Below are positions 8,552 to 46,369 of a stretch of DNA of 64,000 bases, in pieces; within the stretch, counting starts at the first letter, position 1; every line of letters starts with the position of its first letter. The DNA is from Myxococcota bacterium (lineage in GTDB: Bacteria; Myxococcota_A; UBA9160; JAFDDA01), in contig OZ245817.1 in the NCBI GenBank assembly GCA_965228475.1, forward strand, positions 2,516,209 through 2,580,208, in the 5' to 3' direction. A model generated the notes under the pieces. It made no database searches. It was given only the letters and a program-made list of their open reading frames with translations, and was not told the DNA's origin. The position numbers and the translations under genes were made by a program.

Positions 8552-10684
8552 ATGACGCCCGCAGACCGGCGCCGCGCGGAAACGGCAGCCGAACGAAGCC
8601 TTCCCTTCACCCTCGCGATCCTCGGAACCACCCTCCTCTTCGCGTACACGAACGCCGCAGCGGACCCGCCCACAGGGCCGCCTCCGAAGGCCGCCTCGGT
8701 CGGCGAGGTCACCGCGACGGCGGGCCGGACCGAACGCAACGTGCTCGAGACCGCGGGGCACGTCACCGTGCTCGAGCGGAGCGACATCGAGACCAGCGGT
8801 GCCAAGAACGTCGCGGAGCTCCTCCGGCGCGAGCCGGGCGTTCTCGTCACGAACTCCACGAGCACGCGCGGCGGCTACGAGGTCGAGGTGCGAGGCTTCC
8901 AGAACGGCTCGGGCGGGGGCTCCAGCCTGCTCGTCCTCGTGGACGGCCGACGCATCAACGAGCCCGAGACGAGCGTCACCGACTGGGGCTTGATCCCCCT
9001 CGACAACATCGAGCGGGTCGAGATCGTGCGCGGCCCGGCGAGTGCGCTCTATGGCGACAACGCCGTGGGCGGGGTCGTCGAGATCACGACGCGCAGTGGC
9101 GAAGGCCCGCCCCGAGCCACCGTCACCGGCCGGCTCGGCAAGTACCGAACGAAGGAAGGGAGCGCCTGGGCCGGGGGCAGCGCGGGCCCCGTGGCCCTGT
9201 CGGTCTTCTTCGATCACTTCGAGACCGGGGGCTACCGCGACCAGTCGAACTTCCGTTCCCGGGACTTCCAGGGTCGAACGGACATCCAGCTCGGCGACTC
9301 GGCATCGCTGTCGCTCCGCGGCGGCTACGTCACGAACGATCGGCCGCCCCCGGGGCCCCTCAACGAGCTCGAGCTCGACGCGGATCGCCAGCAGGTCGAC
9401 CCCGACAGCATCGGCAGCGATGCCATCGCACGCCGGCGCTTCGTGGATGGAACGCTCACGGCGCAGCCCGCCGAAGGCGTCACGCTCTCGGCGCAGGGCT
9501 ACTACACCCGGCGCAACGACAGCACCGTCGCGCCCTCCGCCGCGGGACTCTTCTCGCGCGGCTTCGAGACCCAGGCGCTCGGGCTGAACGGCAAGGCCCA
9601 GTTCGACTGGCAGGGCCCCGGGGAAACGAAGCTCCGCACCATCATCGGGCTCGACCTGCTCCGCGAGGATCGCAAGGGTGCCGATACGTTCGTCTCGGCA
9701 TTCAACCCGCTCTTCAACAGCGACTCGAAGCGCCGTTCCCGGAAGGACAGCGTCGGAGCGTATCTTCAAGCGGAGCTGGAAGTGCTCTCCTGGCTCCTGC
9801 TGACCGCAGGCTATCGCCACGACCGCGCCGACTACGAGATCAACGACGTCGACCGGATCACGCTGGTCAAGCAGGCCGCGGACCCGACCCATACGCTCCA
9901 TACGCCACGCTTCGGCATCGTGGCCCGCGCCACGGAGACGACCTCGGTCTACGCCTCCTGGGCCCGGGGGTTCCGTCTCCCGAACCTCGGCGAGACCGGC
10001 GGGGTCTTCGCGAACAACCCGAACATCGATCCCCAGCGCTCCAAGGGGATCGAGGTCGGCGTGAAGCATCGCAGCGAGCGGCTGCGCGCGAACCTCGCGC
10101 TCTATCGCATGGACGTCCGCGACGAGATCCTGCTCGATTCCGAGGTGATCCAGTTCGGTTTCTTCGGGCTGCAGACCGTCAACATGGACCGCGTTCGCCA
10201 TCAGGGTCTCGAGGTCTCGTGGTCCTTCGACCTGTTCCCCGCCCTCGAGCTCCACGGCGGCTACACCTGGGACGACACCCGCATCCGGCGCGACAGCACC
10301 ACGAACCTCGACGGCAAGCGCGTCCCGATCACGCCCGAGCACCGCGGCAGCCTCGGTGTCCTGGCCCGGGGCCCCTGGGGCCTCGAAGCCGGAGTCGACG
10401 TCCAGTTCGTGGGCCGGCGCTACGGTGTCAACGACTTCGGCCACCGGCTCGATCAACTCCAGGACTACCGGCGCTGGGACGTTCACCTCGGCTGGCGGCC
10501 GAAGCTCGGCGAGCACGTGGAGCTGGGCTTCACCTTCGACCTCTTGAACGCATCGAACCGCCGCTACGAGGAGACGGGCGGTCGGCCGAGTTTCGTGGCC
10601 GTCGGCGCCACCGCGGTGCCGGGCTTCTTTCCCGCTCCGCGCCGGCACTACATCGGTGGCGTTTCCGTCACGGTGCGGCGGTGA
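8552..10684 (+). CDS. btuB: TonB-dependent receptor (BtuB-like, under B12 riboswitch)
   Basis: Plug-domain signatures VTVLERSDIETSGAKNVAELLRREPGV and IERVEIVRGPASALYGDNAVGGVVEITTR are present, followed by a long beta-barrel region. Start at ATG 8552 gives a signal-like LPFTLAILGTTLLFAYTNAA. Confidence 0.85.
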   Translation: MTPADRRRAETAAERSLPFTLAILGTTLLFAYTNAAADPPTGPPPKAASVGEVTATAGRTERNVLETAGHVTVLERSDIETSGAKNVAELLRREPGVLVTNSTSTRGGYEVEVRGFQNGSGGGSSLLVLVDGRRINEPETSVTDWGLIPLDNIERVEIVRGPASALYGDNAVGGVVEITTRSGEGPPRATVTGRLGKYRTKEGSAWAGGSAGPVALSVFFDHFETGGYRDQSNFRSRDFQGRTDIQLGDSASLSLRGGYVTNDRPPPGPLNELELDADRQQVDPDSIGSDAIARRRFVDGTLTAQPAEGVTLSAQGYYTRRNDSTVAPSAAGLFSRGFETQALGLNGKAQFDWQGPGETKLRTIIGLDLLREDRKGADTFVSAFNPLFNSDSKRRSRKDSVGAYLQAELEVLSWLLLTAGYRHDRADYEINDVDRITLVKQAADPTHTLHTPRFGIVARATETTSVYASWARGFRLPNLGETGGVFANNPNIDPQRSKGIEVGVKHRSERLRANLALYRMDVRDEILLDSEVIQFGFFGLQTVNMDRVRHQGLEVSWSFDLFPALELHGGYTWDDTRIRRDSTTNLDGKRVPITPEHRGSLGVLARGPWGLEAGVDVQFVGRRYGVNDFGHRLDQLQDYRRWDVHLGWRPKLGEHVELGFTFDLLNASNRRYEETGGRPSFVAVGATAVPGFFPAPRRHYIGGVSVTVRR

Positions 10685-20506: not shown

Positions 20507-20564
20507 CGGCCCCGCGCCCGACCCTCTTGACCACGCACCGGGCGGCAGGAAACCGGCAACTCCG

Positions 20565-20575
20565 TGGTAGGATCC
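20565..20575 (+). promoter_or_regulatory. Extended -10-like element TGGTAGGATCC
   Basis: It lies 70 nt upstream of the lipoprotein ATG 20645. The identical 11-mer recurs at 23821-23831 upstream of the giant PEP-CTERM gene. Confidence 0.35.
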
Positions 20576-20644
20576 GCGGTCTTTCGCGGGCCCTCGGCCC
20601 GCGCCCGAAGTGGCCCGCGATCGGAATGCTCAGGAAGGAGTGCC

Positions 20645-21727
20645 ATGAGACCCGCGGCTCGCAGCGCGGCGCGCATCACCCTCGCGGGCCTGGCCCTGCT
20701 GTCGACCGGCTGCCAGCTCGTCGGGCCGCGCACGGTCGACATCGGCCGGGTTCACTACAACACGGTCATCCAGCGCACCGGGAACGAGCAGATGCTGCTC
20801 AACCTGGTCCGTCTGCGGTACAGCGACACGCCCTTCTTCCTTCAGGTGGCGAGCATCTCCACGGCCTTCGAGTTCAAGACCGGGGCGAACGTGGGCATCG
20901 GCGTGAGTCCCGGGACGTACCTGTTCGGCGGCGACGTCGAGCTCGCCGAACAGCCGACCGTCACGTACACGCCGCTCGAGGGCGAGCAGTTCGTGAAGAG
21001 CGTGCTCACCCCGATCGACCTCGCGACGGTGCTCCTGCTCTATCACTCCGGCTGGGCCATCGACCGGCTCCTGCGCATCACCGTCCAGGAGATGAACGAC
21101 GTCCCGAACGCGCCGAGCGCATCGGGCCCGACGCCCAAGACCGCGCCCGAGTACGAGACGTTCCTGGGCGTCGCCGAGGCCCTCCGAGAGCTCCAGTCGC
21201 GCGGCGACATCTCCCTGGCCGGCCGCGCCGGCCCGTCCGGCACCGAACTCCAGCTCACCTTGGAGCCCGACGCCGTCGGCAGCCCCGCTCACCGGGCCTT
21301 CGCTTCGGGTCTCCGGCTCGATCCGGCCCTCGCCCAGTACCGTTTGGTGACGGACGCCGGCCTGCGGGAGCCGGATCAGATCTCGGTCGTCACGCGCTCC
21401 CTGATGGCGTCCTTTTTCTACGTGTCGCAGGGCGTCGAGGTCCCGGAGGAGGACGAAACCGCCGGCCGGGTCAACACGACGCGCACGGCGGCCGGCGAGC
21501 GCTTCGACTGGAACTTCATCCAGGACGATCTTTTCCGGGTCCACCAGGCCGAGCACCTGCCGGACCAGGCGTCCGTGAGCACCCATTATCGGGAACGGTG
21601 GTTCTACATCGCCGACGCCGACCTCGAATCCGAATCTACATTCGCGTTGCTCATGCAGCTCTTCTCCCTCCAATCGGGAAACGTGCCCTCGAGCGCCCCC
21701 CTGCTGACCCTCCCGGTCAGCCGCTAG
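20645..21727 (+). CDS. Hypothetical lipoprotein (360 aa)
   Basis: SD AGGAAGGAG is present. Signal plus lipobox MRPAARSAARITLAGLALLSTGC. No family recognised. Confidence 0.7.
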   Translation: MRPAARSAARITLAGLALLSTGCQLVGPRTVDIGRVHYNTVIQRTGNEQMLLNLVRLRYSDTPFFLQVASISTAFEFKTGANVGIGVSPGTYLFGGDVELAEQPTVTYTPLEGEQFVKSVLTPIDLATVLLLYHSGWAIDRLLRITVQEMNDVPNAPSASGPTPKTAPEYETFLGVAEALRELQSRGDISLAGRAGPSGTELQLTLEPDAVGSPAHRAFASGLRLDPALAQYRLVTDAGLREPDQISVVTRSLMASFFYVSQGVEVPEEDETAGRVNTTRTAAGERFDWNFIQDDLFRVHQAEHLPDQASVSTHYRERWFYIADADLESESTFALLMQLFSLQSGNVPSSAPLLTLPVSR

Positions 21728-21875: not shown

Positions 21876-23729
21876 ATGCGCGTGCCTCATCGACCTCTGT
21901 TCATTGCTTTCGCTCTCGTTGCCATGCACTTTCAGATCGGTGTGGGCTGCGCAGAGCCGCTCACCATCAACGTGACCTCACCGAGCCACGGCGAGTTCTC
22001 GACCGCCAGCTCGATCACGATCACCGGGTCCGTGACGGGCGTGCAGCCGGCCAACGCCGCGCTGACCATCAACGGCTCGCCGGTGACGGTCGCCGGGAAC
22101 TCGACCTTCTCCGCGAACGTCGCCCTCGATGGCAACATCGTGTTCAACCCGTTCCTGCTCGAACTCACGAACACCAACACGAACGTCACGATCCGCGATC
22201 GGATCGTGGTGATCGCCGGTGAGTCGGTCGCGGACGGAGCCCTGTCCGAGGACAGCATCGCGCTGCGCCTGAACGACTCGGGCCTCGACTCCATCGAAGG
22301 GGTCGTGAGCAGCCTGGTCAACTTCGACCTCGCCACGCTCCTCCCGGTCGGGACGGCGGTGATCAACGACTTCTGCGCGATCGACGGCGGCTTCCTCGGC
22401 TGCCTCGGCAGCGTGGACGTCGTGATCGCCAACCCGACGCCGAGCATCTCGGGCTTCTCGATCGACATCGACTCGCTGGTGAACGCCGCCGCGGGCGACG
22501 TCACGATCAACGACCTCGACGTCCGGGCGCAGATCAACGGCTCGGGCATCGCCCCGAGCTGCGGGCTCCGCCTCACCGCGAACTCGCTCGACATCCTCGG
22601 GGACTACACCCTCGAGCCCGACGCTCTTGGCGACGCGATCGACGTGAACCTCATCACGTCGCCGCCGGGCATCGTGTTCTCGGGCTTCAACAGCGAGTTC
22701 ACGAGCGGCCTGTGCGACTTCCCGCTGATCGGCAGCCTGATTCAGCTGATCATCGGCGACGTCCAGCCGATCGTCGTGAACGGCCTCCGGGACTTCCTGG
22801 ACGATCCGGACGGGGCCGGCCCCGCGGACGCCCCGCTCGCGGAAGGCATCGAGACGGCTCTGGCCGAGATCTCGATCGCCGGCCCGATCGGCGAGGGCCT
22901 CGGCCTGAACCTCGAGGCGCCGCTGTTCGCCGTGGACGAGGACAACGCGGGCATCACCCTCGGGTCCGATGGCCGCATCACCTCGACGCCGTGCACCCCG
23001 CCGCCGAACGCGCCGGACCTGCTGGCTTCCCTGGCCGTGCCGGAGCCGTTCCCGAGCTTCGGGGCGCTCACGCCGGGCGGCCTGCCCTACGGCCTCGGCA
23101 TCTGCGTCTCGACGGCGGCCTTCAACCAGCTGCTGAAGGCCGAGACCGAGTGCGGCCTGCTCCAGACCACGCTGACGGAGCTCGACCTCGATGGGCCCGG
23201 CGGCAACCCGCCGCTGCCCATCACCGCAGCCGTCCTCGCGACGTTCATCCCCGAACTGGCCAACGCCGACCCGTCGACGCCCTTCGCGATCAATCTGATC
23301 CCGACCCTGGCGCCGGCCCTGACCGGCAACCCGGGGCCTGCGGGTGAGATTGCCGAGCTCCGGCTTGGCGGTCTGGTCGTCGAGGTCGTCGAGACCATCG
23401 GAGGCCAGAAGATCATCGACGGTCAGGTCGACTTCCGCGCCGGCCTGGACTTCAGCTTCGACAGCCAGACCAGCGAGCTCGTGCCGACCATCGGCGCGGT
23501 GGGCGCCGGGGACATCAACGTCGACATCGTGAACAACACGGTGATGACGAACCCGACCCAGCTCGCCTTCATCCTGGAGATCCTGCTGCCGGGCCTGCTG
23601 CCCACCCTGGGCGACTCGCTCGGCTCGTTCCCGCTGCCGGAACTGCTGGGCCTCCAGATCCAGGGCGTGTCCGTCGAGCAGAACGGCGAGTTCGTCTCGC
23701 TCTTCGCCGACCTGGTCCCGACTCCCTAG
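21876..23729 (+). CDS. Secreted protein (617 aa) with an N-terminal Ig-like domain
   Basis: Signal peptide MRVPHRPLFIAFALVAMHFQIGVGCA. ITITGSVTG...LTINGSPVTVAGNSTFSANVALDGNIVF has the usual bacterial Ig-like pattern. The rest is unassigned, Arg-poor and Asn/Thr-rich compared with its neighbours. Confidence 0.75.
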   Translation: MRVPHRPLFIAFALVAMHFQIGVGCAEPLTINVTSPSHGEFSTASSITITGSVTGVQPANAALTINGSPVTVAGNSTFSANVALDGNIVFNPFLLELTNTNTNVTIRDRIVVIAGESVADGALSEDSIALRLNDSGLDSIEGVVSSLVNFDLATLLPVGTAVINDFCAIDGGFLGCLGSVDVVIANPTPSISGFSIDIDSLVNAAAGDVTINDLDVRAQINGSGIAPSCGLRLTANSLDILGDYTLEPDALGDAIDVNLITSPPGIVFSGFNSEFTSGLCDFPLIGSLIQLIIGDVQPIVVNGLRDFLDDPDGAGPADAPLAEGIETALAEISIAGPIGEGLGLNLEAPLFAVDEDNAGITLGSDGRITSTPCTPPPNAPDLLASLAVPEPFPSFGALTPGGLPYGLGICVSTAAFNQLLKAETECGLLQTTLTELDLDGPGGNPPLPITAAVLATFIPELANADPSTPFAINLIPTLAPALTGNPGPAGEIAELRLGGLVVEVVETIGGQKIIDGQVDFRAGLDFSFDSQTSELVPTIGAVGAGDINVDIVNNTVMTNPTQLAFILEILLPGLLPTLGDSLGSFPLPELLGLQIQGVSVEQNGEFVSLFADLVPTP

Positions 23730-23752
23730 GGGCCCGCGTCTCCGAGCCTGCG

Positions 23753-23806
23753 CCCCCGTGACGGGACGATCCCAGATCGTCCTCGTCACGGGGGCTTTCT
23801 CGTTCT
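23753..23806 (+). terminator. Strong intrinsic terminator
   Basis: CCCCCGTGACGGGACGATC cca GATCGTCC(t)CGTCACGGGGG forms a roughly 19-bp stem with one bulge, followed by CTTTCTCGTTCT. Confidence 0.7.
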
Positions 23807-23820
23807 GGCCCGGCGGTTTC

Positions 23821-23831
23821 TGGTAGGATCC
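23821..23831 (+). promoter_or_regulatory. Extended -10-like element TGGTAGGATCC (second copy)
   Basis: It lies downstream of the terminator, 58 nt before ATG 23889 and 5 nt before the alternative GTG 23835. Confidence 0.35.
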
Positions 23832-23888
23832 CGGGTGGCGAAGGGGCCACCGCCGCGCGTCCGACCGGGCGCCGGCCGGAAACCGCCC

Positions 23889-26800
23889 ATGCGCCTCCTC
23901 CTGCCCCTCCTGCTGACCCTGTTCGCTCTTCCCGCCCCGGCCCCCGCGGCGCCCGATTCGGGCGAGCTCGTCTATCTGAACGAAGGCAACCGCCTGCGGC
24001 GCTTCGACGTCGACACGCTCGGCCAGCGGCTTCCCGCCCAGGACGTCCTCGTCCAGCGCGAGGGGCCCGAGGGCCCGGGCGGAGGTGACGCCGGCGCGAC
24101 CCCGAACGGGAACGACATCAACGGGATGATCTGCCCGTTCCCGGACGGAAGCGGGCGCTTCGTCGCCGGTGAGGACACGCACCAGCCGACGCCGCCCGCA
24201 GGCTGGGGGATCTACGCGCCCGACGGCTCTCTGGTCGGCAAGATGACCCCCACCTATCCGACCGTCTCCCCCGAGACCTTCGGCTGCGGGTTCAACTCCG
24301 AGGGCCTCCTCTTCACGACCTCGACCGGCGACCCGGGCATCGGCTTCGGGAACGGGCAGCTGATCCTCTGGTTTCCGCCCTACGAGGGCTTCCCCGGCCC
24401 CCCGGGCGCCTACCCGGAGACGAACGCCCGGAGCGAGAACTTCTGCGTCCTCGCCAACGACATCGGCACCGCCACGGGCGTCGCGATCGACGACGACGAC
24501 AACGTCTACGTCGCTTCGGGCGGACTGCTCCGCGTCCTGCGCTTCGCGCCGCCCTTCCCGACCGGGCTCGGCCCGGGCGAAGGCTGCGAAGGCACCGACC
24601 CCCAGGGCTCCCCGATGGCCGACGCCGTGAACCGCTCCATCGCCGTCCAGGGAAACCTGGCCTCGCTCTACAGCACGTTCACGGGCCTCGCGATGGCACC
24701 GAACGGGAACCTCTACGCAGCGAGCATCATCAACGGGACGATCGGCGAGTTCCGGCTCGACACGGGCGACCCCTCCCAGGCCTCGACCTTCGTCCGTCAC
24801 ATCCTGCTGCCCACGGACCCGCCCTTCCCGTTCGAGACCGGCACGCCCCAGGGCCTCGCGGTGGGGGGCGACGGCAGCGTCTACTACGCCGACATCGACC
24901 TCGTCGGCACCTTCCCGAACCTCGGCCCGGGGCCGGACGGAAAGCTCCGCCGGATCCGCTTCGACGGGAGCGGTGACCCGCTCCCGCCCGAAACGATCCG
25001 GGACGGACTCGCCTTCCCGGACGGCGTGGCGGTCCTCCCGGGGCATCTGCCCTCGAAGGAGTGGCGCAGCTACGCGGGCGGTCCGGAGCGGCTCTTCCAC
25101 AACCCCGACGAGTTCATCCTCGGCGCGGCCCAGGCCGGCTCGCTCGTGCAGCGCTGGCGCTTCGAGACCGACGCCATCATCACCGCTTCGCCCATCGTGG
25201 CGCGCCTCGACGTTCCCGGAGAGGGCCCGCAGTCGATCGCGTTCATCCAATCCTGGGACGGGAACGTCTACGCCGTGCGCGTGAAGGACGGGACCGAACT
25301 CTGGCGGTTCGCCACGGAGCCCCAGCCCGGGGCGAACTTCCCGAACACCGGCTCCGCCCACGTCGAGAACGTCGACGGGCGCGAAACGGTCTTCATCGCC
25401 AGCGGACACCTGGCCTACGCCCTCGATGCGATCACCGGCGAGGAGATCTGGCGGTTCACGGCCGGCACGGGCTGCCGTGACGAGAACGGCGTGCCGCCCG
25501 GTGCGTGCACGATCGGAGGGGAGCGCAACGAGATCGAGACCTCGGCCATCGTCGCGGACGGGAAGGTCTACTTCGGGATGGACGTGAACGACACCGTGGG
25601 CGGCAAGGGCGGCTTCTTCGCCCTCGAGACGACCACCGGGCACCTCGCCTGGTTCTTCGACCTCGAGTCCGGGAAGACCTGCCGGCCCTTCCCGGGCGAT
25701 GAGATCGACCAGTTCGACGCCTACCACGACGCCGCCGATCTGAACCTCCCGGCGGACTTCTTCAGTACGCGGCCGGGCTGCGACTTCCCGCGCAGCCAGA
25801 CCGGCTGCGGCAACGTCTGGGCGACGCCCTCCTACGACGCGGGCCGCGACACCCTCTACGTCGCGGCGAGCAACTGCGACACGCGCACCGGGCCGGGGGA
25901 CGACCCGCGAAAGCCCGACCCGCCGATGCCCCCCTTCGACCTCTCGGTCTTCGCGATCACGGCGCAGGGGACCCCGACCTGGCGCTACCGCTCCTACGCC
26001 GTCGACAACGAGGACTTCGCCTTCGGCGCCTCGCCGAACCTGTTCTCGATCGACGTGCCGGGCCTCGGCTCCGTCGACGTGCTCGGCATCGGGCAGAAGG
26101 ACGGCCACTACCGGGTGCTTCCGCGCGACGGCGTGAACCCGCTGAGCGGGATCGACTGCACCGTGCTCGACGCCAACGGCGTCCCGGGCTGCGTCGACAC
26201 CAACCTCGGCGGAGCCCCGTCCGAGCCGGCCGACTTCCCCGAGTTCCCCTTCTGGGACACCCAGGTCGTCCCCGGCGGCCGCGCCGGGGGCGTGATCCTC
26301 ACCGCCGCCGCCAATCCGGTGGACCGGCGCATCGTCTTCAGCACGGCGCCGGGCTTCGACCCGCTGGCCCCTCAACAGCCGACGCTTCACATCCTCGACA
26401 TGGACACGGGCGACGTCGTGTGGGACGCGAGCCAGCTGCCCGTCCAGGACTCGGTCACCGAGAGCGCGAGCTTCGCACCGACGAGCACGGTCCCGGGCCT
26501 CGCCTTCTTCGGGACGGTGCCCTTCGACCTGCTCCGGGTGATCGCGACGGAAGACGACGACCCGCAGGAGGTCTTCGTCTATCCGCTTTCGGGCTTCCCG
26601 ATCTCCGGAGCGGCCTCGGGCGCCATCGTCGTGGACGGCACCGTGCTCGTCGGTCACGGCATCGGCGTCCGCGGGAACCCCCAGGACCAGGGGACCCTGA
26701 CCTCGAACATCCCCTCGGCCCTCGTGGCGCTGTGCGCCCCCGGCACGCCGGGCTGCGCGCCCTGCAACGACGGCATCGACAACGACCTGGACGGCCTCGT

Positions 26801-27944
26801 GGATGGCGACGACTCCGGCTGTACCGGCCCCGGGGATCTGAGCGAGCGCCCCGATTGCATGGACGGCCTCGACAACGACCACGACGGCCTCGATGACTGG
26901 CCGAGCGACCCCGGCTGCCGGAACCGCCTGCCGCGCTCCGTCGAGAGCCCCGCCTGCGACGACGGCATCGACAACGACGGCGACGGCGGGATCGACCGCG
27001 ACCCGGCGACCGGCGACCCCGACCTCCAGTGCGAGGCCGCCTGGGACGAGAGCGAAGGCGAGAGCAGCGGCCCGAGCTGCGGGCTCCTGGGCATCGAAGC
27101 GCTGGCCGCGCTCCTCTGGCTCCGCCGGCCGCGTGGACGGCGCCGCGCAAGCGCCCGGCTCGTCGCGGGCGCGACGCTCGGACTGCTTGCGGCCGGGCTG
27201 CCGGCCGGCCTGGCCGGAGCGGCCCCCATCCCCGTGAGCGTCGGCGTGACGCTCGGAGTCGAGTTCCCGGGCGCGACCCTCTTCACCGGCCCGGAACAGT
27301 TCGGCACCGTCACCGTCGATGCCACGGCCCGGACGGTGTCCCTGCCGGCGGGGGTCCTCTCGCTCTCGGGCACGGTCGCCGGCCAGGTCGGCTTCACGCT
27401 CCGAAACCCGGCGGGTACGTTCCGGCCGGGCGGTGCCTCGGCGGGCACGTGCCCCGGGCCGCTCGGCGGCCAGGGCGCCTGCATCCTCGGCGCCGCCGTC
27501 GGAGGCGGCTTCGGCGGGACGCTGCCGCTCTCGGGCACGGTCCGGATCCTGTCCGCGTCGGCGTCGCTCCCGGCGACGGCCATCGGCGCGGCGCGGACCG
27601 CCTCGGCCGCGGGGAACGTCCTCCAGGGAGCGCCCTTCACGACCCGGACCGCGGCGGTCACGACCACGGCCAACGGTTTCTGGACCACCGCCCGCGGCAA
27701 CCTTCCGGCAGGCTGGCTCACCGCTGCCGGCAACCCATCGGCACCGCCGGTCCAGAGCCTTCTTCTCGTGAGCCCGGTCCACGTCCAGCTCGCCGGGAGT
27801 GCATCCCCCGTGCCCGTTTTCGTGACCCTGTCGATTCGTGCGATACCCGAACCCGCCGCTGGGGCACTCATGCTGTGCGGCTGGCTCGCGCTCATGGCTA
27901 GCCTCCGGTGGCCGATGCTATGGTCCGCCGTTCTGCGAAGATGA
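23889..27944 (+). CDS. Giant secreted protein (1351 aa): NHL/SMP30-like and PQQ-like beta-propellers, three Cys-bounded acidic repeats, an internal sorting-signal-like TM/Arg module, a Gly/Ala/Thr-rich module, and a terminal PEP-CTERM
   Basis: Signal peptide MRLLLPLLLTLFALPAPAPAAP. Propeller repeats include DGNVYAVRVKDGTELWRF, GHLAYALDAITGEEIWRF and GGFFALETTTGHLAWFF. The C-terminus IPEPAAGALMLCGWLALMASLRW...LRR* is PEP-CTERM-like. Confidence 0.85.
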   Translation: MRLLLPLLLTLFALPAPAPAAPDSGELVYLNEGNRLRRFDVDTLGQRLPAQDVLVQREGPEGPGGGDAGATPNGNDINGMICPFPDGSGRFVAGEDTHQPTPPAGWGIYAPDGSLVGKMTPTYPTVSPETFGCGFNSEGLLFTTSTGDPGIGFGNGQLILWFPPYEGFPGPPGAYPETNARSENFCVLANDIGTATGVAIDDDDNVYVASGGLLRVLRFAPPFPTGLGPGEGCEGTDPQGSPMADAVNRSIAVQGNLASLYSTFTGLAMAPNGNLYAASIINGTIGEFRLDTGDPSQASTFVRHILLPTDPPFPFETGTPQGLAVGGDGSVYYADIDLVGTFPNLGPGPDGKLRRIRFDGSGDPLPPETIRDGLAFPDGVAVLPGHLPSKEWRSYAGGPERLFHNPDEFILGAAQAGSLVQRWRFETDAIITASPIVARLDVPGEGPQSIAFIQSWDGNVYAVRVKDGTELWRFATEPQPGANFPNTGSAHVENVDGRETVFIASGHLAYALDAITGEEIWRFTAGTGCRDENGVPPGACTIGGERNEIETSAIVADGKVYFGMDVNDTVGGKGGFFALETTTGHLAWFFDLESGKTCRPFPGDEIDQFDAYHDAADLNLPADFFSTRPGCDFPRSQTGCGNVWATPSYDAGRDTLYVAASNCDTRTGPGDDPRKPDPPMPPFDLSVFAITAQGTPTWRYRSYAVDNEDFAFGASPNLFSIDVPGLGSVDVLGIGQKDGHYRVLPRDGVNPLSGIDCTVLDANGVPGCVDTNLGGAPSEPADFPEFPFWDTQVVPGGRAGGVILTAAANPVDRRIVFSTAPGFDPLAPQQPTLHILDMDTGDVVWDASQLPVQDSVTESASFAPTSTVPGLAFFGTVPFDLLRVIATEDDDPQEVFVYPLSGFPISGAASGAIVVDGTVLVGHGIGVRGNPQDQGTLTSNIPSALVALCAPGTPGCAPCNDGIDNDLDGLVDGDDSGCTGPGDLSERPDCMDGLDNDHDGLDDWPSDPGCRNRLPRSVESPACDDGIDNDGDGGIDRDPATGDPDLQCEAAWDESEGESSGPSCGLLGIEALAALLWLRRPRGRRRASARLVAGATLGLLAAGLPAGLAGAAPIPVSVGVTLGVEFPGATLFTGPEQFGTVTVDATARTVSLPAGVLSLSGTVAGQVGFTLRNPAGTFRPGGASAGTCPGPLGGQGACILGAAVGGGFGGTLPLSGTVRILSASASLPATAIGAARTASAAGNVLQGAPFTTRTAAVTTTANGFWTTARGNLPAGWLTAAGNPSAPPVQSLLLVSPVHVQLAGSASPVPVFVTLSIRAIPEPAAGALMLCGWLALMASLRWPMLWSAVLRR

Positions 27945-27953
27945 GGGTCCGCG

Positions 27954-29777
27954 ATGAACATCCTGGGAATTTCCGCCTACTACCACGACAGTGCAGCCTG
28001 CCTGGTGCAGGACGGCCGCATCGTGGCAGCGGCCCAGGAGGAACGCTTCACCCGCAAGAAGCATGACGCGGAGTTCCCCGCCCATGCGATGCACTACTGC
28101 CTCGAAGAAGCGGGGATCGGCGTCGAGGACCTCGACCTCGTCGCCTTCTACGACAAGCCGCTCCTGAAGTTCGAGCGCATCCTCGAGACCTATCTTTCCT
28201 ACACGCCGCGCGGCTTCAAGCTCTTCATGATGGGCTTGCCCGTCTGGCTGAAGCAGAAGCTCCATACCCCTCGCGAGCTCGACAAGGGCCTCGGGGGCAA
28301 GTACGACGGCCGCTACGTCTTTCTCGAGCACCACGAGTCCCACGCCGCGAGCGCTTTCTTCCCCTCCCCCTACGACGAGGCGGTCATCCTGACCCTCGAC
28401 GGCGTCGGCGAGTGGGACACGGGCAGCATCGCCGTCGGCCGCGGCAACAAGATCGAGATGCTCGAGGAGCTGAAGTTCCCCCACTCCCTCGGCCTGCTCT
28501 ACTCCGCCTTCACCTACTTCACCGGCTTCCGGGTGAACAGCGGCGAGTACAAGCTCATGGGCCTGGCGCCCTACGGCGAGCCGATCTACGCCGACCGCAT
28601 CCGGGACAACTGCCTCGACATGAAGGAGGACGGCTCCTTCCGCATGAACATGGACTACTTCGCCTACACGCGGAAAGACGTCATGACGTCGGAGAAGATG
28701 GACTCTCTCTTCGACGGCCCGCCGCGGACGGCCGAGACCGAGATCACCCAGCGCGAAATGGACATCGCGGCTTCGATCCAGGTCGTGACCGAAGAGATCA
28801 TGCTGCGCATCGCGCGGCACGCCCACCGCAAGACGGGGATCGACAACCTCGTGATGGCCGGTGGCGTGGCGCTCAACTGCGTCGGCAACGGGAAGATCCT
28901 GCGCGAAGGCCCGTTCAAGAATCTCTGGATCCAGCCGGCCGCGGGCGACGCCGGCGGCGCGCTCGGCGCGGCCCTCTTCACCTGGCACCAGCTGCTCGAC
29001 AACCCCCGCGACAACGGGGGCAAGGACTCCCAGACCGGATCCCTCCTCGGCCCCCAGGCCAAGGAAGCCGACATCCGCTCCTTCCTCGATTCGGCGGGCG
29101 CCGTCTACCAGCACTACGACGAGGAAGAGAAGCTCTGCGACGCCGTGGCCGAGCTCATCGCCACCGAGAACGTCGTCGGGCACATGGGCGGACGCATGGA
29201 GTTCGGACCCCGCGCCCTCGGGAGCCGCTCCATCCTCGGCGATCCGCGCTCGCCGAAGATGCAGTCGGTGATGAACCTGAAGATCAAGTTCCGCGAGTCC
29301 TTCCGGCCCTTCGCTCCGGCCGTCCTCCAGGAGGACGTCCACGAGTGGTTCGACATGAAGCCCGGCCAGGAGAGCCCCTACATGCTCCTCGTCGCCCCGG
29401 TCCGCGAGGACAAGTGCAAGCCCGTCGACGACAGCAAGAGCGGGCTCGACAAGCTCAAGCAGGAGCGCTCGGTGCTGCCCGCGATCACCCACGTCGACTA
29501 CTCCGCGCGCGTGCAGACCGTCGACCCGGAACGCTACCCGCGCTTCTACGGCATCCTCAGCCGCTTCAAGGCCAAGACGGGCTGCGGCGTGATGATCAAC
29601 ACCAGCTTCAACGTCCGCGGCGAGCCGATCGTCTGCACCCCGGCGGACGCCTACCGCTGCTTCATGGGCACCAACATGGACGCCCTGGTGATCGAGAACT
29701 TCGTCCTGCGCAAAGAAGACCAGCCGGACGCCGACGTCGACCGCGAGGCCTACCTCGCGAAGTTCGACCTGGACTAG
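27954..29777 (+). CDS. Carbamoyltransferase (NodU/CmcH/SxtI family)
   Basis: MNILGISAYYHDSAACLVQDGRIVAAAQEERFTRKKHDAEFP, FLEHHESHAASAF, YKLMGLAPYGEP and INTSFNVRGEPIV are present. It starts 10 nt after the giant gene's stop, with SD GAGGG. Confidence 0.9.
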   Translation: MNILGISAYYHDSAACLVQDGRIVAAAQEERFTRKKHDAEFPAHAMHYCLEEAGIGVEDLDLVAFYDKPLLKFERILETYLSYTPRGFKLFMMGLPVWLKQKLHTPRELDKGLGGKYDGRYVFLEHHESHAASAFFPSPYDEAVILTLDGVGEWDTGSIAVGRGNKIEMLEELKFPHSLGLLYSAFTYFTGFRVNSGEYKLMGLAPYGEPIYADRIRDNCLDMKEDGSFRMNMDYFAYTRKDVMTSEKMDSLFDGPPRTAETEITQREMDIAASIQVVTEEIMLRIARHAHRKTGIDNLVMAGGVALNCVGNGKILREGPFKNLWIQPAAGDAGGALGAALFTWHQLLDNPRDNGGKDSQTGSLLGPQAKEADIRSFLDSAGAVYQHYDEEEKLCDAVAELIATENVVGHMGGRMEFGPRALGSRSILGDPRSPKMQSVMNLKIKFRESFRPFAPAVLQEDVHEWFDMKPGQESPYMLLVAPVREDKCKPVDDSKSGLDKLKQERSVLPAITHVDYSARVQTVDPERYPRFYGILSRFKAKTGCGVMINTSFNVRGEPIVCTPADAYRCFMGTNMDALVIENFVLRKEDQPDADVDREAYLAKFDLD

Positions 29778-29780
29778 CCG

Positions 29781-30227
29781 ATGGCGAAGATGGTCGAAAT
29801 CGATTGGAACCCGGATCCGGGAACCCTGCGCCAGTTCGGCTGGGTGGCTCTCGTGGGCTTCTCGCTGATCGCCCTTCTGGCGCACCAGGAGTGGCTGATC
29901 TTCGCTTTCGGCCTCGGCGATGCGCGAATGAAGGTGGTCGTGGGCCTGCTCGCCGTCGGCGCCCTCGCCGCCCTGATCGGCCTCGTCTACCCGAAGGCCA
30001 ACAAGCCCCTCTTCATCGGCCTGACGCTCCTGGCCTTCCCGATCGGGTTCGTACTCTCGTACGTCATCATGATCACCCTGTTCTTCGTGATCATCGCGCC
30101 GATCGGGATCCTCATGCGCCTCGCCGGACGGGATCCGATGGAGCGTGAGATCGACCCGAACGCCGAGAGCTATTGGACGCCGGCCAAACCCGCGCCGCCC
30201 AACAGCCGCTACTTCCGCCAGTTCTAG
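29781..30227 (+). CDS. SxtJ-like small polytopic membrane protein
   Basis: 148 aa with about 4 hydrophobic helices, N-terminus LRQFGWVALVGFSLIALL, and a position immediately after the carbamoyltransferase, as in the sxtI-J-K arrangement (recalled, not searched). Confidence 0.65.
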   Translation: MAKMVEIDWNPDPGTLRQFGWVALVGFSLIALLAHQEWLIFAFGLGDARMKVVVGLLAVGALAALIGLVYPKANKPLFIGLTLLAFPIGFVLSYVIMITLFFVIIAPIGILMRLAGRDPMEREIDPNAESYWTPAKPAPPNSRYFRQF

Positions 30228-30268: not shown

Positions 30269-30466
30269 ATGTCCGATCAAGACGCGAAAGACTTCATCGC
30301 CGAAGCCAAGGAAGAGCGCAGCGGGCTCGTTGGCGAGTTCACCGACTTCCTGCGAGAGAACAAGAAGTGGTGGCTCGCGCCCATCATCGTCTCGATCCTG
30401 GCCCTGGGGGCTCTCGTGCTCCTCGGCGGGACGGCCGCGGCGCCCTTCATCTACACGCTCTTCTAG
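30269..30466 (+). CDS. DUF5989/SxtK-like single-TM mini-protein (65 aa)
   Basis: MSDQDAKDFIAEAKEERSGLVGEFTDFLRENKKWWLAPIIVSILALGALVLLGG: an amphipathic N-terminus plus one TM helix. It is the third member of the triad. Confidence 0.6.
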   Translation: MSDQDAKDFIAEAKEERSGLVGEFTDFLRENKKWWLAPIIVSILALGALVLLGGTAAAPFIYTLF

Positions 30467-30571: not shown

Positions 30572-31219
30572 CTAGCGAGCTTCGTCCGGGAAGCAGGCGT
30601 CGCGCTGGTGCCGGTAGGCGGCGATCAGCCAGTCGCGCGTCTTTTCCCGGGCCACGGAGAGCTTGCCCGGCATGACGGGGCCCCCCGCGATCAGCAGCGT
30701 CAGCGGACGCGTGGCGTCGAGCACGAGTTCGGGAGCCCGCTTGAGCTGGGCCAGGCTCGGGTGCCGGACCGGCTCGCCTCCGAAGACGAACAGGTAGCTC
30801 GCGACGGCTCGGCGGCCGTTCGCGCGGTCGATGATGGTCTGGATCGGGAGCGTCTTGCCGTCGACCTCGACGTGTTCGACCTCCCGCTGCCCGGCCTCGA
30901 ACTGCCCGAGCAGGATGCCCGGCGGACGCGTGTAGAGCCGGATCGCATCGAAGGAGCGCACCAGCGCTCCGCGCAGCTCGACGCCCCGCTCGCCGATGTC
31001 GATCTCCGCCTGGGTCCACTGGGGCACGTCCTCGTCGTACCTCTCGAGGCGTTCGGAAAAGGTCCGGGTGAACGGCAGGCCCTTGATCTCGAGCGCCCGC
31101 TCGGGGTCCTGGCAGTCATCGTGGCGGCGCACCTCGAAGCGTGCGACCGCCAGCGGCGCGAGCAGCACCCCGACCGCCACGAGAAGCCACGGCGCGTGGC
31201 GGCCCGACAGATGGATCAT
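30572..31219 (-). CDS. Exosortase-associated EpsI-like single-TM protein (215 aa)
   Basis: ATGA overlap with the exosortase stop, an N-terminal anchor PWLLVAVGVLLAPLAVA, and the size and position of EpsI. Sequence-level similarity was not verified. Confidence 0.5.
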   Translation of the reverse strand: MIHLSGRHAPWLLVAVGVLLAPLAVARFEVRRHDDCQDPERALEIKGLPFTRTFSERLERYDEDVPQWTQAEIDIGERGVELRGALVRSFDAIRLYTRPPGILLGQFEAGQREVEHVEVDGKTLPIQTIIDRANGRRAVASYLFVFGGEPVRHPSLAQLKRAPELVLDATRPLTLLIAGGPVMPGKLSVAREKTRDWLIAAYRHQRDACFPDEAR

Positions 31220-44549: not shown

Positions 44550-44557
44550 GCATGCGC

Positions 44558-44563
44558 ACGCTA
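44558..44563 (-). promoter_or_regulatory. -10-like TAGCGT, 8 nt upstream of the AlkA-like ATG; no SD
   Basis: The minus strand reads TAGCGT gcgcatgc ATG (ATG at 44549). Confidence 0.3.
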
Positions 44564-44615
44564 GCGCAGGCCTGCCGCAGGCCACGTGCACGGTGCTCTC
44601 CGCACGCAGCAAGGG

Positions 44616-44621
44616 TATTCT
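44616..44621 (+). promoter_or_regulatory. -10-like TATTCT, 8 nt upstream of the GT2 ATG; no SD
   Basis: TATTCT cccgagcc ATG (ATG at 44630). Confidence 0.3.
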
Positions 44622-44629
44622 CCCGAGCC

Positions 44630-45793
44630 ATGGAGCGCCCGGTCGAAGTCTCGTTCGTGATGCCGTGCCTGAACGAGGCCGAGACCCTCGCGGATTGCAT
44701 CCGCGCGGCGAAGGGCTGCATCGAACGCCACGGCCTTTCCGCCGAGATCGTCATCGCCGACAACGGCAGCACCGACGGCTCCCAGGACATCGCCCGCAGC
44801 GAAGGCGCGCGGGTCGTCGACATCGAGGAGCGCGGCTACGGCGCGGCGCTGCTCGGCGGCTTCGAGGCGGCCCACGGCGAGTTCCTCATCATGGGCGACG
44901 CCGACATGAGCTACGACTTCGGCGAAGCGTTCCCGATGGTCGAAGCCATGCGCGCAGGGGCCGACGTCGTGATGGGCTCGCGCTTCCGCGGCCGCATCGA
45001 GCCGGGCGCCATGCCCTTCCTCCACAAGTACCTCGGAAACCCCGTGCTCTCCTTCCTCGGGCGCTTCCTCTTCCGCATCGAGATCTCGGACTTCCACTGC
45101 GGCCTGCGCGGCTTCACGAAGAAGGCCTTCCACGCGATGAACCTCCGCACGAGCGGCATGGAGCTCGCGAGCGAGATCGTCGTGAAGGCGGCCACGGGGA
45201 AGATGCGCATCGCGGAAGTCCCGGTGACGCTCCGCCCCGACGGCCGCTCCCGCGCCCCGCACCTGCGCACGTGGCGCGACGGCTGGCGGCACCTGCGCTT
45301 CCTCCTCACGCTCTCGCCGCGCTACACGCTCTTCGTCCCCGGGAGCGTCCTGCTCCTGCTCGGCGGAGCCCTGCTCGCGGCGGTGGCGCCCGGCCCGCTC
45401 TCCGTGGGCTCGGTGGTCCTCGACGTCCATACGATGCTCGTCGGGAGCCTGCTCGTGATCACGGGCTATCAGGCCATCACCACCGCCTTCGCGGCACGCA
45501 TCTTCGCGCTGGAAGAGGAGATCGGGCCGCCGGCGCCCTGGCTCGAAAAGAGCTTCTCGATCTTCACGCTCGAGCGCGGAATCGTCGGCGGGCTGCTGCT
45601 CGCGCTCCTCGGCGTCGGCATCATCGGGCGCCTGATCGCGCACTGGGCCTCCCTCGACTTCGGGCCCCTCGACGCCTCGGCGACCCTCCGCCCCATGGTC
45701 TTCGGCGCGACCTTCGTCGCCCTCGGCATCCAGACCCTCCTCATGTCGTTCCTCTACAGCATGATGGGGATCAAGCGGAGACGATCCCGCTAG
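44630..45793 (+). CDS. Family-2 glycosyltransferase with C-terminal TM helices (polyprenyl-phosphate sugar synthase type, GtrB/ArnC/DPM1-like)
   Basis: VSFVMPCLNEAETL, VIADNGSTDGS and LIMGDADMSYD (DxD) are present, followed by about 4 hydrophobic helices in the last 150 aa. Confidence 0.85.
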   Translation: MERPVEVSFVMPCLNEAETLADCIRAAKGCIERHGLSAEIVIADNGSTDGSQDIARSEGARVVDIEERGYGAALLGGFEAAHGEFLIMGDADMSYDFGEAFPMVEAMRAGADVVMGSRFRGRIEPGAMPFLHKYLGNPVLSFLGRFLFRIEISDFHCGLRGFTKKAFHAMNLRTSGMELASEIVVKAATGKMRIAEVPVTLRPDGRSRAPHLRTWRDGWRHLRFLLTLSPRYTLFVPGSVLLLLGGALLAAVAPGPLSVGSVVLDVHTMLVGSLLVITGYQAITTAFAARIFALEEEIGPPAPWLEKSFSIFTLERGIVGGLLLALLGVGIIGRLIAHWASLDFGPLDASATLRPMVFGATFVALGIQTLLMSFLYSMMGIKRRRSR

Positions 45794-45814
45794 ATGACGC
45801 CGGGCTCCCGCTAG

Positions 45815-46369
45815 ATGCGCACCATCGACCACATCCTTTCGCGCTGGCGGATCGGCAAGGCCGCCGCCTGGACGCGCCCGGGCGACCGGCTCCTCGACGT
45901 CGGATGCTACGACGGAAGCCTGATCCGCGAGGTGCGCCCACGCATCGCGAGCGCGGTTGGCATCGACGCCGTGGCCGAGCCGAGCGATGCGGGCGACGGC
46001 GTGCGCATCGTGCGAGGCCACTTCCCCGAAGACCTCTCCGAGCCCGACGGGAGCTTCGACTGCATCACGGCCCTCGCGGTGCTCGAGCACGTGACGGACC
46101 CGCCGGCCTTCGCCGCCGCCTGCCATCGCCTGCTCTCCCCCGGCGGCCGGGTCGTGCTGACGGTTCCCCACCCGCGCGTCGACGGCATCGTCGACACCCT
46201 GATCGCCCTGCGCCTCGCCGACGGCATGGACTTCGAAGAGCACCACGGGTTCGACGTCGGCCGTACACGCCCCATCTTCGAGGAGGCAGGGTTCAGGCTG
46301 CGGGCCGAGCGCGCCTTCCAGCTCGGCCTGAACCGGCTCTTCGTGTTCGAGAAGCCGGGGCCCGCCTAG
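45815..46369 (+). CDS. Class I SAM-dependent methyltransferase
   Basis: RLLDVGCYDGSLI (motif I-like) and ALAVLEHVTDP...LLSPGGRVVLTVP are present. Confidence 0.75.
   Translation: MRTIDHILSRWRIGKAAAWTRPGDRLLDVGCYDGSLIREVRPRIASAVGIDAVAEPSDAGDGVRIVRGHFPEDLSEPDGSFDCITALAVLEHVTDPPAFAAACHRLLSPGGRVVLTVPHPRVDGIVDTLIALRLADGMDFEEHHGFDVGRTRPIFEEAGFRLRAERAFQLGLNRLFVFEKPGPA

Follow-up and report, generated by a model that had tools for sequence, protein, structure and literature searches.

Can two secreted proteins, each with a sorting signal of its own, be joined in one polypeptide, and what would become of such a chain? The question is raised by a 64,000-nucleotide stretch of DNA from a Myxococcota bacterium (contig OZ245817.1, positions 2,516,209 to 2,580,208; hereafter the window), in which a single open reading frame (ORF) at 23889-27944 on the forward strand encodes a large propeller protein (the cargo), a sorting-signal-like tail in the middle of the chain, and a second module that ends in a PEP-CTERM-type tail. 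We find that this ORF is almost certainly a natural in-frame fusion of a conserved two-gene cassette. The fuller statement, in which cassette fusion is combined with processing of the chain and with a logic that matches partner to cargo, we regard as likely.

An earlier sequence-only reading of the window had described one uninterrupted frame of 1351 amino acids (aa), and this is borne out by translation, which gives 1351 codons and a stop, with zero internal stops. The window is 71% G+C, and G+C at third codon positions (GC3) is 0.86-0.98 in the frame of the cargo ORF on either side of the junction. Because GC3 stays high across the junction, both halves are coding in one frame. A 1934-aa antisense ORF (21978-27782, reverse strand) was rejected as a shadow frame of this G+C-rich DNA, its codon-position G+C being unlike that of a gene. 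The ORF is composed of the following parts.

23889-27944, forward strand: fused ORF, 1351 aa, with the cargo in residues 1-1090 and the partner in residues 1091-1351
23889-23954, forward strand: putative N-terminal Sec-type signal peptide, residues 1 to about 22, read by eye
23961-26708, forward strand: two beta-propeller regions, NHL/SMP30-like (residues about 25-400) and PQQ-like (residues about 420-940)
26751-27059, forward strand: three acidic double-disulfide repeats (CxDGxDNDxDG...C), seen as three stretches with NF033662
27078-27158, forward strand: internal sorting tail, residues 1064-1090, with the signature C1064-G-L-L-G-I-E1070
27159-27221, forward strand: former partner signal peptide, with an h-region at L1091-A1111 and a putative AxA site (A1109-G-A1111, then AP)
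27222-27839, forward strand: type A partner module, about 205 aa, beta-rich, with conserved CPGPLxGxGAC and QGAPxTTRTAAVTTT
27843-27944, forward strand: divergent PEP-CTERM-type tail (IPEP, helix, WPML, late basic residues) and stop

The N-terminal signal peptide (MRLLLPLLLTLFALPAPAPA) reads MR, then LLLPLLLTLFAL, then PAPAPA, with its hydrophobic segment at 1-17. The propeller part matches PQQ-type propeller models in Pfam (PF01011, 54.5 bits, residues 450-767; PF13360, 42.5 bits), the Pfam match to NHL is faint (13.3 bits), and the sequence matches of this part in the PDB are to PQQ-type propeller blades only. A PQQ-dependent dehydrogenase can be set aside: TIGR03075 gives 38.6 bits against a cut-off of 480 and TIGR03074 33.1 bits against 833, and since these scores are far under the cut-offs, only the propeller fold is shared with such enzymes. 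The acidic repeats score 38.2 bits with the NCBIfam model NF033662 (cut-off 41). At the junction, the order is C1064-GLLGIE-ALAALLWL-RRPRGRRRASAR-LVAGATLGLLAAGLPAGLAGA-APIPVSV. The hydrophobic stretch of the internal tail ends at L1078, the Arg cluster R1079-R1090 holds 7 Arg in 12 residues, and the h-region that comes after it (LVAGATLGLLAAGLPAGLAGA) has this cluster in the place of the n-region of a second signal peptide. The signal peptide, the PQQ propeller, the three acidic repeats and the Cys/helix/Arg segment all lie where the sequence-only reading had put them. It had also noted the lack of an in-frame ATG or GTG at the junction, which is true, and there is no TTG either between 27120 and 27230. 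Its statement that the frame continues with no spacer needs correction, as the three residues SAR separate the RRRA cluster from the h-region.

The nature of the second half is indicated by relatives in which the halves are encoded apart. There, the propeller gene ends just after the tail and a separate gene of 254-281 aa comes next, overlapping the stop by 1 or 4 nucleotides (nt); across relatives, gene 2 is placed between a 4-nt overlap and 14 nt downstream of gene 1. The gene for P0005, a protein 62% identical to that of the window, ends ...CGLMGPELLPVLFGARRLRRLQRPGRKKR. In its locus, L002, this cargo ends CGLMGPE...RKKR and the next gene overlaps it via ATGA. This second gene (9333-10178) encodes 281 aa with a signal peptide of its own (MSEASPMQEQKRRKIRGRRTRVAVTALALLALAGSDVATA); over window residues 1108-1340 the identity is 48% (E 6e-40), and the tail scores 19.7 bits with the PEP-CTERM model TIGR02595 (cut-off 16). 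L086 is a second split cassette, with a TGATG overlap, and P0122 and P0123 are stand-alone module proteins with a signal peptide and a canonical PEP-CTERM. The h-region of the window aligns with the signal peptides of these stand-alone partners (L002 gene 2, P0122 and P0123). P0004, 72% identical to the window protein, ends after CGLLGPEP...RRS with no module at all, and its locus (L001) has the same flanks as the window, with the 617-aa gene upstream and the carbamoyltransferase and SxtJ genes downstream. The second half of the window ORF is the cargo's conserved, translationally coupled partner gene, and in the window lineage the stop-to-start junction has been lost, the stop of gene 1 and the start codon and n-region of gene 2 being gone. 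The earlier proposal of two exosortase-type cargos fused head to tail is upheld genetically, by the split cassettes (L002 and L086), by the fused form in independent assemblies and by the conservation of both signals. It does not hold in that the second half is a coupled partner gene and not an arbitrary cargo.

Could the fusion instead be an assembly or sequencing artefact, or a recent, functionless stop loss on the way to a pseudogene? High-GC genomes have few chance stops, which makes read-through ORFs easy, and three other tailed proteins (P0164, P0189 and P0214) do resemble read-throughs into nonsecreted or junk sequence. Against this, contig L084 (ENA sample ERZ25074506), a different sequence 99.1% identical to the window, has an ORF of equal length with 26 differences, of which 22 are synonymous and 4 nonsynonymous, and no indel. 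The fusion is also kept in more distant homologues from other samples, at 71% (P0002, 1348 aa), 70% (P0003, 1361 aa) and 49% identity (P0006, 1355 aa). Among fused genes, the C-terminal module has a ratio of nonsynonymous to synonymous substitution rates (dN/dS) of 0.42-0.47, compared with 0.25-0.30 in the propellers; with dS compressed by extreme GC3, these are rough figures. Constraint acts on the module as well as on both signals, and the partner's n-region is not read through but cleanly gone. We consider an artefact or a functionless stop loss very improbable.

Both states of the junction, split and fused, are found among orthologues: P0002, P0003 and P0006 are fused, whereas L002 and L086 are split. 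Separate, co-oriented halves in relatives, together with fusion in independent sequences, are the pattern of a Rosetta-stone-type fusion of adjacent genes. Among the best 120 homologues, 14 are fused (4 to the type A module found in the window and 10 to a different module, type B), and 18 with a strict motif pattern, or 24 with a looser one, end at the tail. In a neighbor-joining tree of the N-terminal 940 residues, P0001-P0003 fall inside unfused relatives, P0006 falls elsewhere, and the type B fusions are a clade of ten. The fusion, which is old and subject to purifying selection, arose on at least three occasions in the propeller family. In species-representative genomes, all seven loci with the long form of the motif (CGLxGxE) have a partner, four of them fused and three split. 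The split cassettes found are L002, L086, L009, L046, L057, L090 and L091, and the fused loci are the window, L084, L085, L088, L089, L004, L006, L013 and L025. Split type B cassettes show in-frame spacers of 3 nt and 9 nt (L057 and L091), a 14-nt spacer (L009) or an ATGA overlap (L090 and L046), and in P0048 the old spacer, now translated, and the former start Met are still readable within the ORF. In other families, a dockerin-bearing cargo is joined to a type B partner in P0251 and P0126.

What the fused proteins retain is the same throughout. All 14 keep the C-G-L-x-G-x-E tail and a loop with 5-13 Arg/Lys; their h-regions are about 13-20 residues long, an automatic call of 34 in the window protein having run on into the module; and Ala-x-Ala, read by eye, follows the h-region in most of them. 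No further ORFs with a CGLxGxE tail were found near propeller genes in 1.25 Mb of loci. As separate observations, the metagenomic protein P0127 (460 aa) has two full units of signal peptide, PA14/GLEYA and CGLLGIE tail in one ORF, which is the same tail-to-signal-peptide fusion in an unrelated family. In the read-through-like P0164, P0189 and P0214, what comes after the Arg cluster is a cytoplasmic zinc-ribbon protein or Arg/Pro/Ser-rich junk. Evidently, the stop after the CGLxGxE tail is often lost in these high-GC genomes, so some of the fusions carry no meaning.

What kind of signal, then, lies in the middle of the chain? It had been taken for a MYXO-CTERM- or PEP-CTERM-style signal, with which no tested profile agrees; it belongs to a separate class of tails defined by a Cys and a Glu. 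Across 32 of 32 aligned tails, terminal or internal, the residues C, G, L, G and E do not vary, the Glu being at +6 from the single Cys and a Pro often next at +7 (GPEP in P0004, GIEP in most tails). Many other proteins, P0004 and P0005 among them, have the identical tail type as their true C-terminus. Scans of the window tail, 9 homologous tails, the 32 aligned tails and 10 full-length proteins with NCBIfam and Pfam found no model for this segment, and because they gave no sorting-domain match, we do not file the internal tail under PEP-, MYXO- or JDVT-CTERM. A PEP-CTERM identity was rejected for want of any profile match or aligned register: TIGR02595 matched none of the 32 tails at E up to 10, hhalign paired the tail profile with local PEP tails at a probability of 26% over 7 columns and out of register, and PEP tails reach at most 5.6 bits on the tail profile versus 30-54 bits for CGLxGxE tails. 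MYXO-CTERM (TIGR03901) was rejected as well, since the Cys is present but there is no match, and the helix has an invariant Glu and a frequent Pro. So was JDVT-CTERM (NF033191) with MrtJ, which gave no match, the acidic residue here being E at +6 and the window having no CPBP gene. The label "exosortase-type" is unproven for the internal tail because its class matches neither PEP- nor MYXO-CTERM profiles.

The tail is widespread beyond propeller proteins. With an independent profile, built from 125 true C-terminal tails and leaving out proteins of propeller-family length, the internal segment of the window scores 36.0 bits (E 2.9e-11) in a six-frame translation; since the next fragment scores 5.1 bits, the segment is no chance match. 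An exhaustive HMMER search of the tail profile against 1.84 billion cluster representatives found at least 150 proteins at E ≤1e-3, 37-1700 aa long, and about 140 of those listed have the motif at most 50 residues from the C-terminus. CGLLGIE is the commonest form, occurring 79 times among the matches listed. (Word-indexed searches returned 3 matches for the type A module and 2 for the tail profile; presumably, low-complexity Ala/Gly/Arg/Leu words swamped the candidates.) The tailed proteins have architectures as diverse as PA14/GLEYA, FG-GAP, TSP3, Big_3_5/LVIVD, NHL with acidic repeats, and PQQ with dockerin, and all 10 that were looked up come from metagenomes only. A short tail that ends many otherwise unrelated secreted proteins is what characterizes tripartite sorting signals in general, and the CGLxGxE tail is, by all appearances, a general sorting-type signal on many unrelated surface-protein architectures. 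The class is in none of the catalogues searched, and a literature search for the motif returned unrelated matches only. We also observed a shorter variant, CG[LIVM]G[AFWVP]E, at the end of six propeller-family proteins (P0007, P0025, P0054, P0104, P0108 and P0111), on which the long-motif profile scores 0-12 bits. In the five short-variant loci checked (L012, L023, L030, L031 and L055), no PEP-CTERM partner follows the gene.

Is the partner specific to its cargo? In nearly every locus examined, tailed genes have a small PEP-CTERM partner, either downstream or fused. The type B module gives a good AlphaFold model (predicted local distance difference test, pLDDT, 85.6), for which the top 25 Foldseek matches in the PDB are all cohesins (E 2e-5, probability 1.00, TM 0.5-0.69); at the sequence level, the match of cohesin family PF00963 to the type B partner of related loci is weak, at 13.3 bits against a cut-off of 24.1. 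Just ahead of the tail, cargos with a type B partner carry, without exception, a dockerin-like segment, a duplicated Ca-binding one that exceeds the Dockerin_1 threshold in P0163. Cargos paired with type A all lack a dockerin and have three acidic double-disulfide repeats in its place, and the repeat triplet is absent where the partner is a cohesin. This co-variation of module and partner is perfect over the 19 cargos with a known partner. P0004, which is without a partner, has two acidic repeats only. By analogy with the dockerin, we propose the acidic repeats as a putative docking module for the type A partner. The pairing extends to an unrelated 1700-aa tailed cargo, P0254, followed by an ATGA-overlapping 189-aa gene with a signal peptide, a weak cohesin match and a PEP-CTERM above threshold; for P0165, the contig ends directly after the gene. 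These observations suggest that diderm bacteria have cohesin-dockerin display with exosortase-dependent anchoring, and we found no paper that combines cohesin, dockerin and PEP-CTERM in the literature searched. Partners of about 180-195 aa with a signal peptide, a cohesin fold and a PEP-CTERM also sit directly 3' of dockerin-bearing, CGLLGIE-tailed cargos at L057 11007-11579, L090 6218-6802, L091 11100-11678, L009 11159-11707 and L095 8509-9078.

The end of the window protein (IPEPAAGALMLCGWLALMASLRWPMLWSAVLRR, then stop) proved less canonical than it had looked in the sequence-only reading: TIGR02595 gives 11.1 bits against 16, with no Pfam match and with weak matches to several PEP-CTERM families. 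Homologous tails pass the same cut-off (19.7 bits for L002 gene 2, 24.1 and 23.3 for P0122 and 27.6 for L095 gene 2). The window tail has an IPEP, a 17-residue helix and the C-terminal position, while its basic cluster is delayed (LRW-PMLWSAVL-RR), and it falls under the thresholds because of the WPML segment and the later basic residues. The W-P-M-L after the helix is common to the window (27843-27941), P0002, P0003 and P0121, in which basic residues come about 10 later than in canonical tails. To our knowledge, the site at which PEP-CTERM tails are cut is still unknown. A candidate for processing the PEP tail, and perhaps both tails, is the exosortase encoded downstream of the cargo, whose presence the sequence-only reading had correctly noted. 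The genes that follow the cargo are these.

27954-29777, forward strand: carbamoyltransferase (Pfam)
29781-30227, forward strand: SxtJ-like membrane protein (Pfam)
30269-30466, forward strand: DUF5989 (Pfam)
30572-31219, reverse strand: 215-aa ORF overlapping the end of the exosortase gene; a called gene in L084, with a 203-aa counterpart in L088
31216-32322, reverse strand: exosortase (PF09721, 171.7 bits; TIGR02602, 126.3 bits against 105.55)

The exosortase scores 146.9 bits with the XrtA model TIGR03109 (cut-off 208), and we leave it without a named subfamily because only the general family model is passed. It has the same position in the window, L084 and L088, and a metagenome scan that used it as the query returned two short loci.

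How might such a chain be handled? We think it somewhat more probable than not that it is processed into two proteins. In the pathway that we propose, Sec export would begin at the N-terminal signal peptide, the helix of the internal tail would stop transfer with its Arg cluster kept in the cytoplasm, and the next hydrophobic segment, the former signal peptide, would restart export, now of the partner module. The PEP helix would then stop transfer again, for a net topology of N-out, three spans and C-in. Signal peptidase I could cut at the retained AGA|AP site; a sorting enzyme, which might be the nearby exosortase or else a protease of the CPBP/myxosortase kind that attacks the invariant Cys, would remove the CGLLGIE tail; and the PEP tail would be processed by exosortase. 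The products would be the two proteins of the split cassette, in a forced 1:1 ratio and in the same place, where the anchored partner would hold the propeller protein through the acidic repeats. Fusion should cost little since membrane topology is preserved, which fits its recurrence.

Several observations weigh against this account. Cleavage at the three sites is in each case something we infer from sequence. That the type A module binds the acidic repeats is likewise suggested by analogy and co-variation only, the AlphaFold model of type A being poor (pLDDT 63) and giving no Foldseek match at E ≤1e-3. The helix of the internal tail is short, with about 15 residues from the Cys to the last hydrophobic residue and the Glu inside it. 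The terminal tail (residues 1319-1351) has no PF07589 match besides its sub-threshold TIGR02595 score, and its unusual form may make it function in another way or less efficiently. Motif and transmembrane scans and Pfam found no CPBP protease gene in the 64 kb of the window, and the other 82 loci searched have no exosortase in the vicinity of the cargo gene.

Some of these points favor an uncleaved chain, that is, a three-span inner-membrane protein with the propellers and the type A module in the periplasm and the motifs serving to pack helices or to contact a partner. Even with no cleavage the predicted topology is consistent in itself, the PEP tail of the window is atypical, and no enzyme has been identified for the CGLLGIE tail. 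However, about 140 of the 149 other proteins listed, with typical surface-protein architectures, end in the tail, as is the mark of a sorting signal that can be removed; most of the 14 fused proteins have an AxA signal-peptidase site after the h-region; split cassettes make two separate proteins; and in other systems, sorting tags are cleaved when internal (PMC11980579). We therefore regard an uncleaved chain as unlikely. Another possibility is that both tails are substrates of one exosortase, the gene 3.3 kb downstream, with CGLLG-IE(P) as a divergent PEP-CTERM and the chain as tandem exosortase cargos, in line with the sequence-only reading. The invariant Glu with Pro often next to it, the conserved place of the exosortase in the window, L084 and L088, its fit to the general family model and to no named subfamily including XrtA, and the window being without a CPBP gene would all agree with this. 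On the other side, the tail profiles are unconnected, in bit scores, in hhalign register and in the failure of TIGR02595 on the 32 tails (0/32); the lack of an exosortase near the cargo in those 82 loci tells against it too; and the invariant Cys and acidic helix residue recall MYXO and JDVT signals, which are assigned to CPBP proteases (10.1101/2023.06.07.544157). A single exosortase for both tails is conceivable but doubtful, and processing into two proteins, at the strength given above, remains the account that we prefer.

The architecture had been thought possibly undescribed as a whole. An internal tag made by fusion has one published precedent: in MXAN_5598 of Myxococcus xanthus, an internal MYXO-CTERM has been ascribed to the fusion of a TraA-like adhesin with a TraB-like gene, and the authors propose that the internal tag is still processed; LPXTG and ArtA sorting tags are functional when internal (PMC11980579). 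As in MXAN_5598, the window encodes a large surface protein whose tripartite tag has become internal by fusion with an overlapping downstream partner gene. Unlike in MXAN_5598, the motif is CGLxGxE in place of GCGC, the downstream half brings along a signal peptide and a sorting tail of a second class (PEP-CTERM), the partner is a small docking-type protein and not an OmpA/beta-barrel protein, and whole clades are defined by a fusion that has occurred three times or more. With the PEP-CTERM/exosortase system (PMC1569441), the window shares a C-terminal half homologous to bona fide PEP-CTERM proteins, an exosortase 3.3 kb away and the tripartite layout; it differs in its sub-threshold tail with the WPML insert and late basic cluster, and in a locus without evident polysaccharide-export genes.

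Among Cys-type signals, MYXO-CTERM has no charged or Pro residue in its helix, and JDVT-CTERM has a single Cys, DP at +9 and an adjacent CPBP protease (10.1101/2023.06.07.544157). The CGLxGxE tail resembles both in its invariant Cys, short helix, Arg cluster and presence on many unrelated surface architectures, and resembles JDVT-CTERM in a conserved acidic helix residue that is often followed by Pro. It is unlike either in that no model matches it, in its E (often EP) at +6/+7 and in having no CPBP gene nearby. The type B loci recall cohesin-dockerin pairs, with a cohesin-fold partner and a dockerin-like segment beside the cargo tail. In contrast, the window uses acidic double-disulfide repeats and a type A module, and anchoring would be by PEP-CTERM in a diderm, not by surface-layer homology (SLH) domains or sortase as in Firmicutes. 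A parallel for the junction is found in viral envelope polyproteins (flavivirus prM-E-NS1, alphavirus E2-6K-E1 and bunyavirus Gn-Gc), where a hairpin is built of a stop-transfer helix, a basic cytoplasmic loop of short length and an internal signal, and signal peptidase releases two ectodomain proteins. Those are systems of the eukaryotic endoplasmic reticulum and polyproteins by design, whereas the window arrangement is a fusion of two ordinary bacterial genes, in which extra cuts by sorting enzymes would be expected.

As for the neighborhood, the carbamoyltransferase/SxtJ-like/DUF5989 trio between cargo and exosortase is found in the same order in L001 (5270-7909) and L088 (6176-8700), and the 215-aa ORF at 30572-31219 has no Pfam or NCBIfam match. 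Upstream of the cargo, ORFs of 617 aa (21876-23729) and 387 aa (20564-21727) each have a hydrophobic segment at the N-terminus and match no family significantly; the longer of the two genes has a lipoprotein-like start (...GVGC) and is syntenic in L001, at 64% identity. Farther downstream, an STT3/AglB-like oligosaccharyltransferase gene (46366-48615, reverse strand; PF02516, PF18079 and PF22627) adjoins a GT2 glycosyltransferase gene (44552-45793) and a small ORF (45815-46369). This part of the window (44552-48615) looks like a bacterial N-glycosylation-type locus, on the same contig as the surface-protein cassette.

Taken further, and tentatively, since we hold it to be somewhat less than an even chance, CGLxGxE-CTERM could be an uncatalogued Cys/Glu sorting signal of uncultured, probably Myxococcota-like diderms, in which dedicated partners anchored by PEP-CTERM (cohesin for dockerin, type A for acidic repeats) would make two sorting machineries cooperate, and repeated fusions would have produced bacterial polyproteins cut by signal peptidase and two sorting enzymes. 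A CGLxGxE profile would improve annotation and permit a search for the corresponding enzyme. The ORF itself is a natural test substrate, in which a terminal PEP-CTERM is combined with a sorting tag and a signal peptide that are both internal, and could reveal whether exosortase-type and Cys-type tags are recognized away from the C-terminus and at which sites they are cut. Fusion at the junction of tail and signal peptide preserves membrane topology, which may explain why it recurs, and the rule that partner type matches the pre-tail module of the cargo suggests cohesin-dockerin-like display in Gram-negative bacteria.

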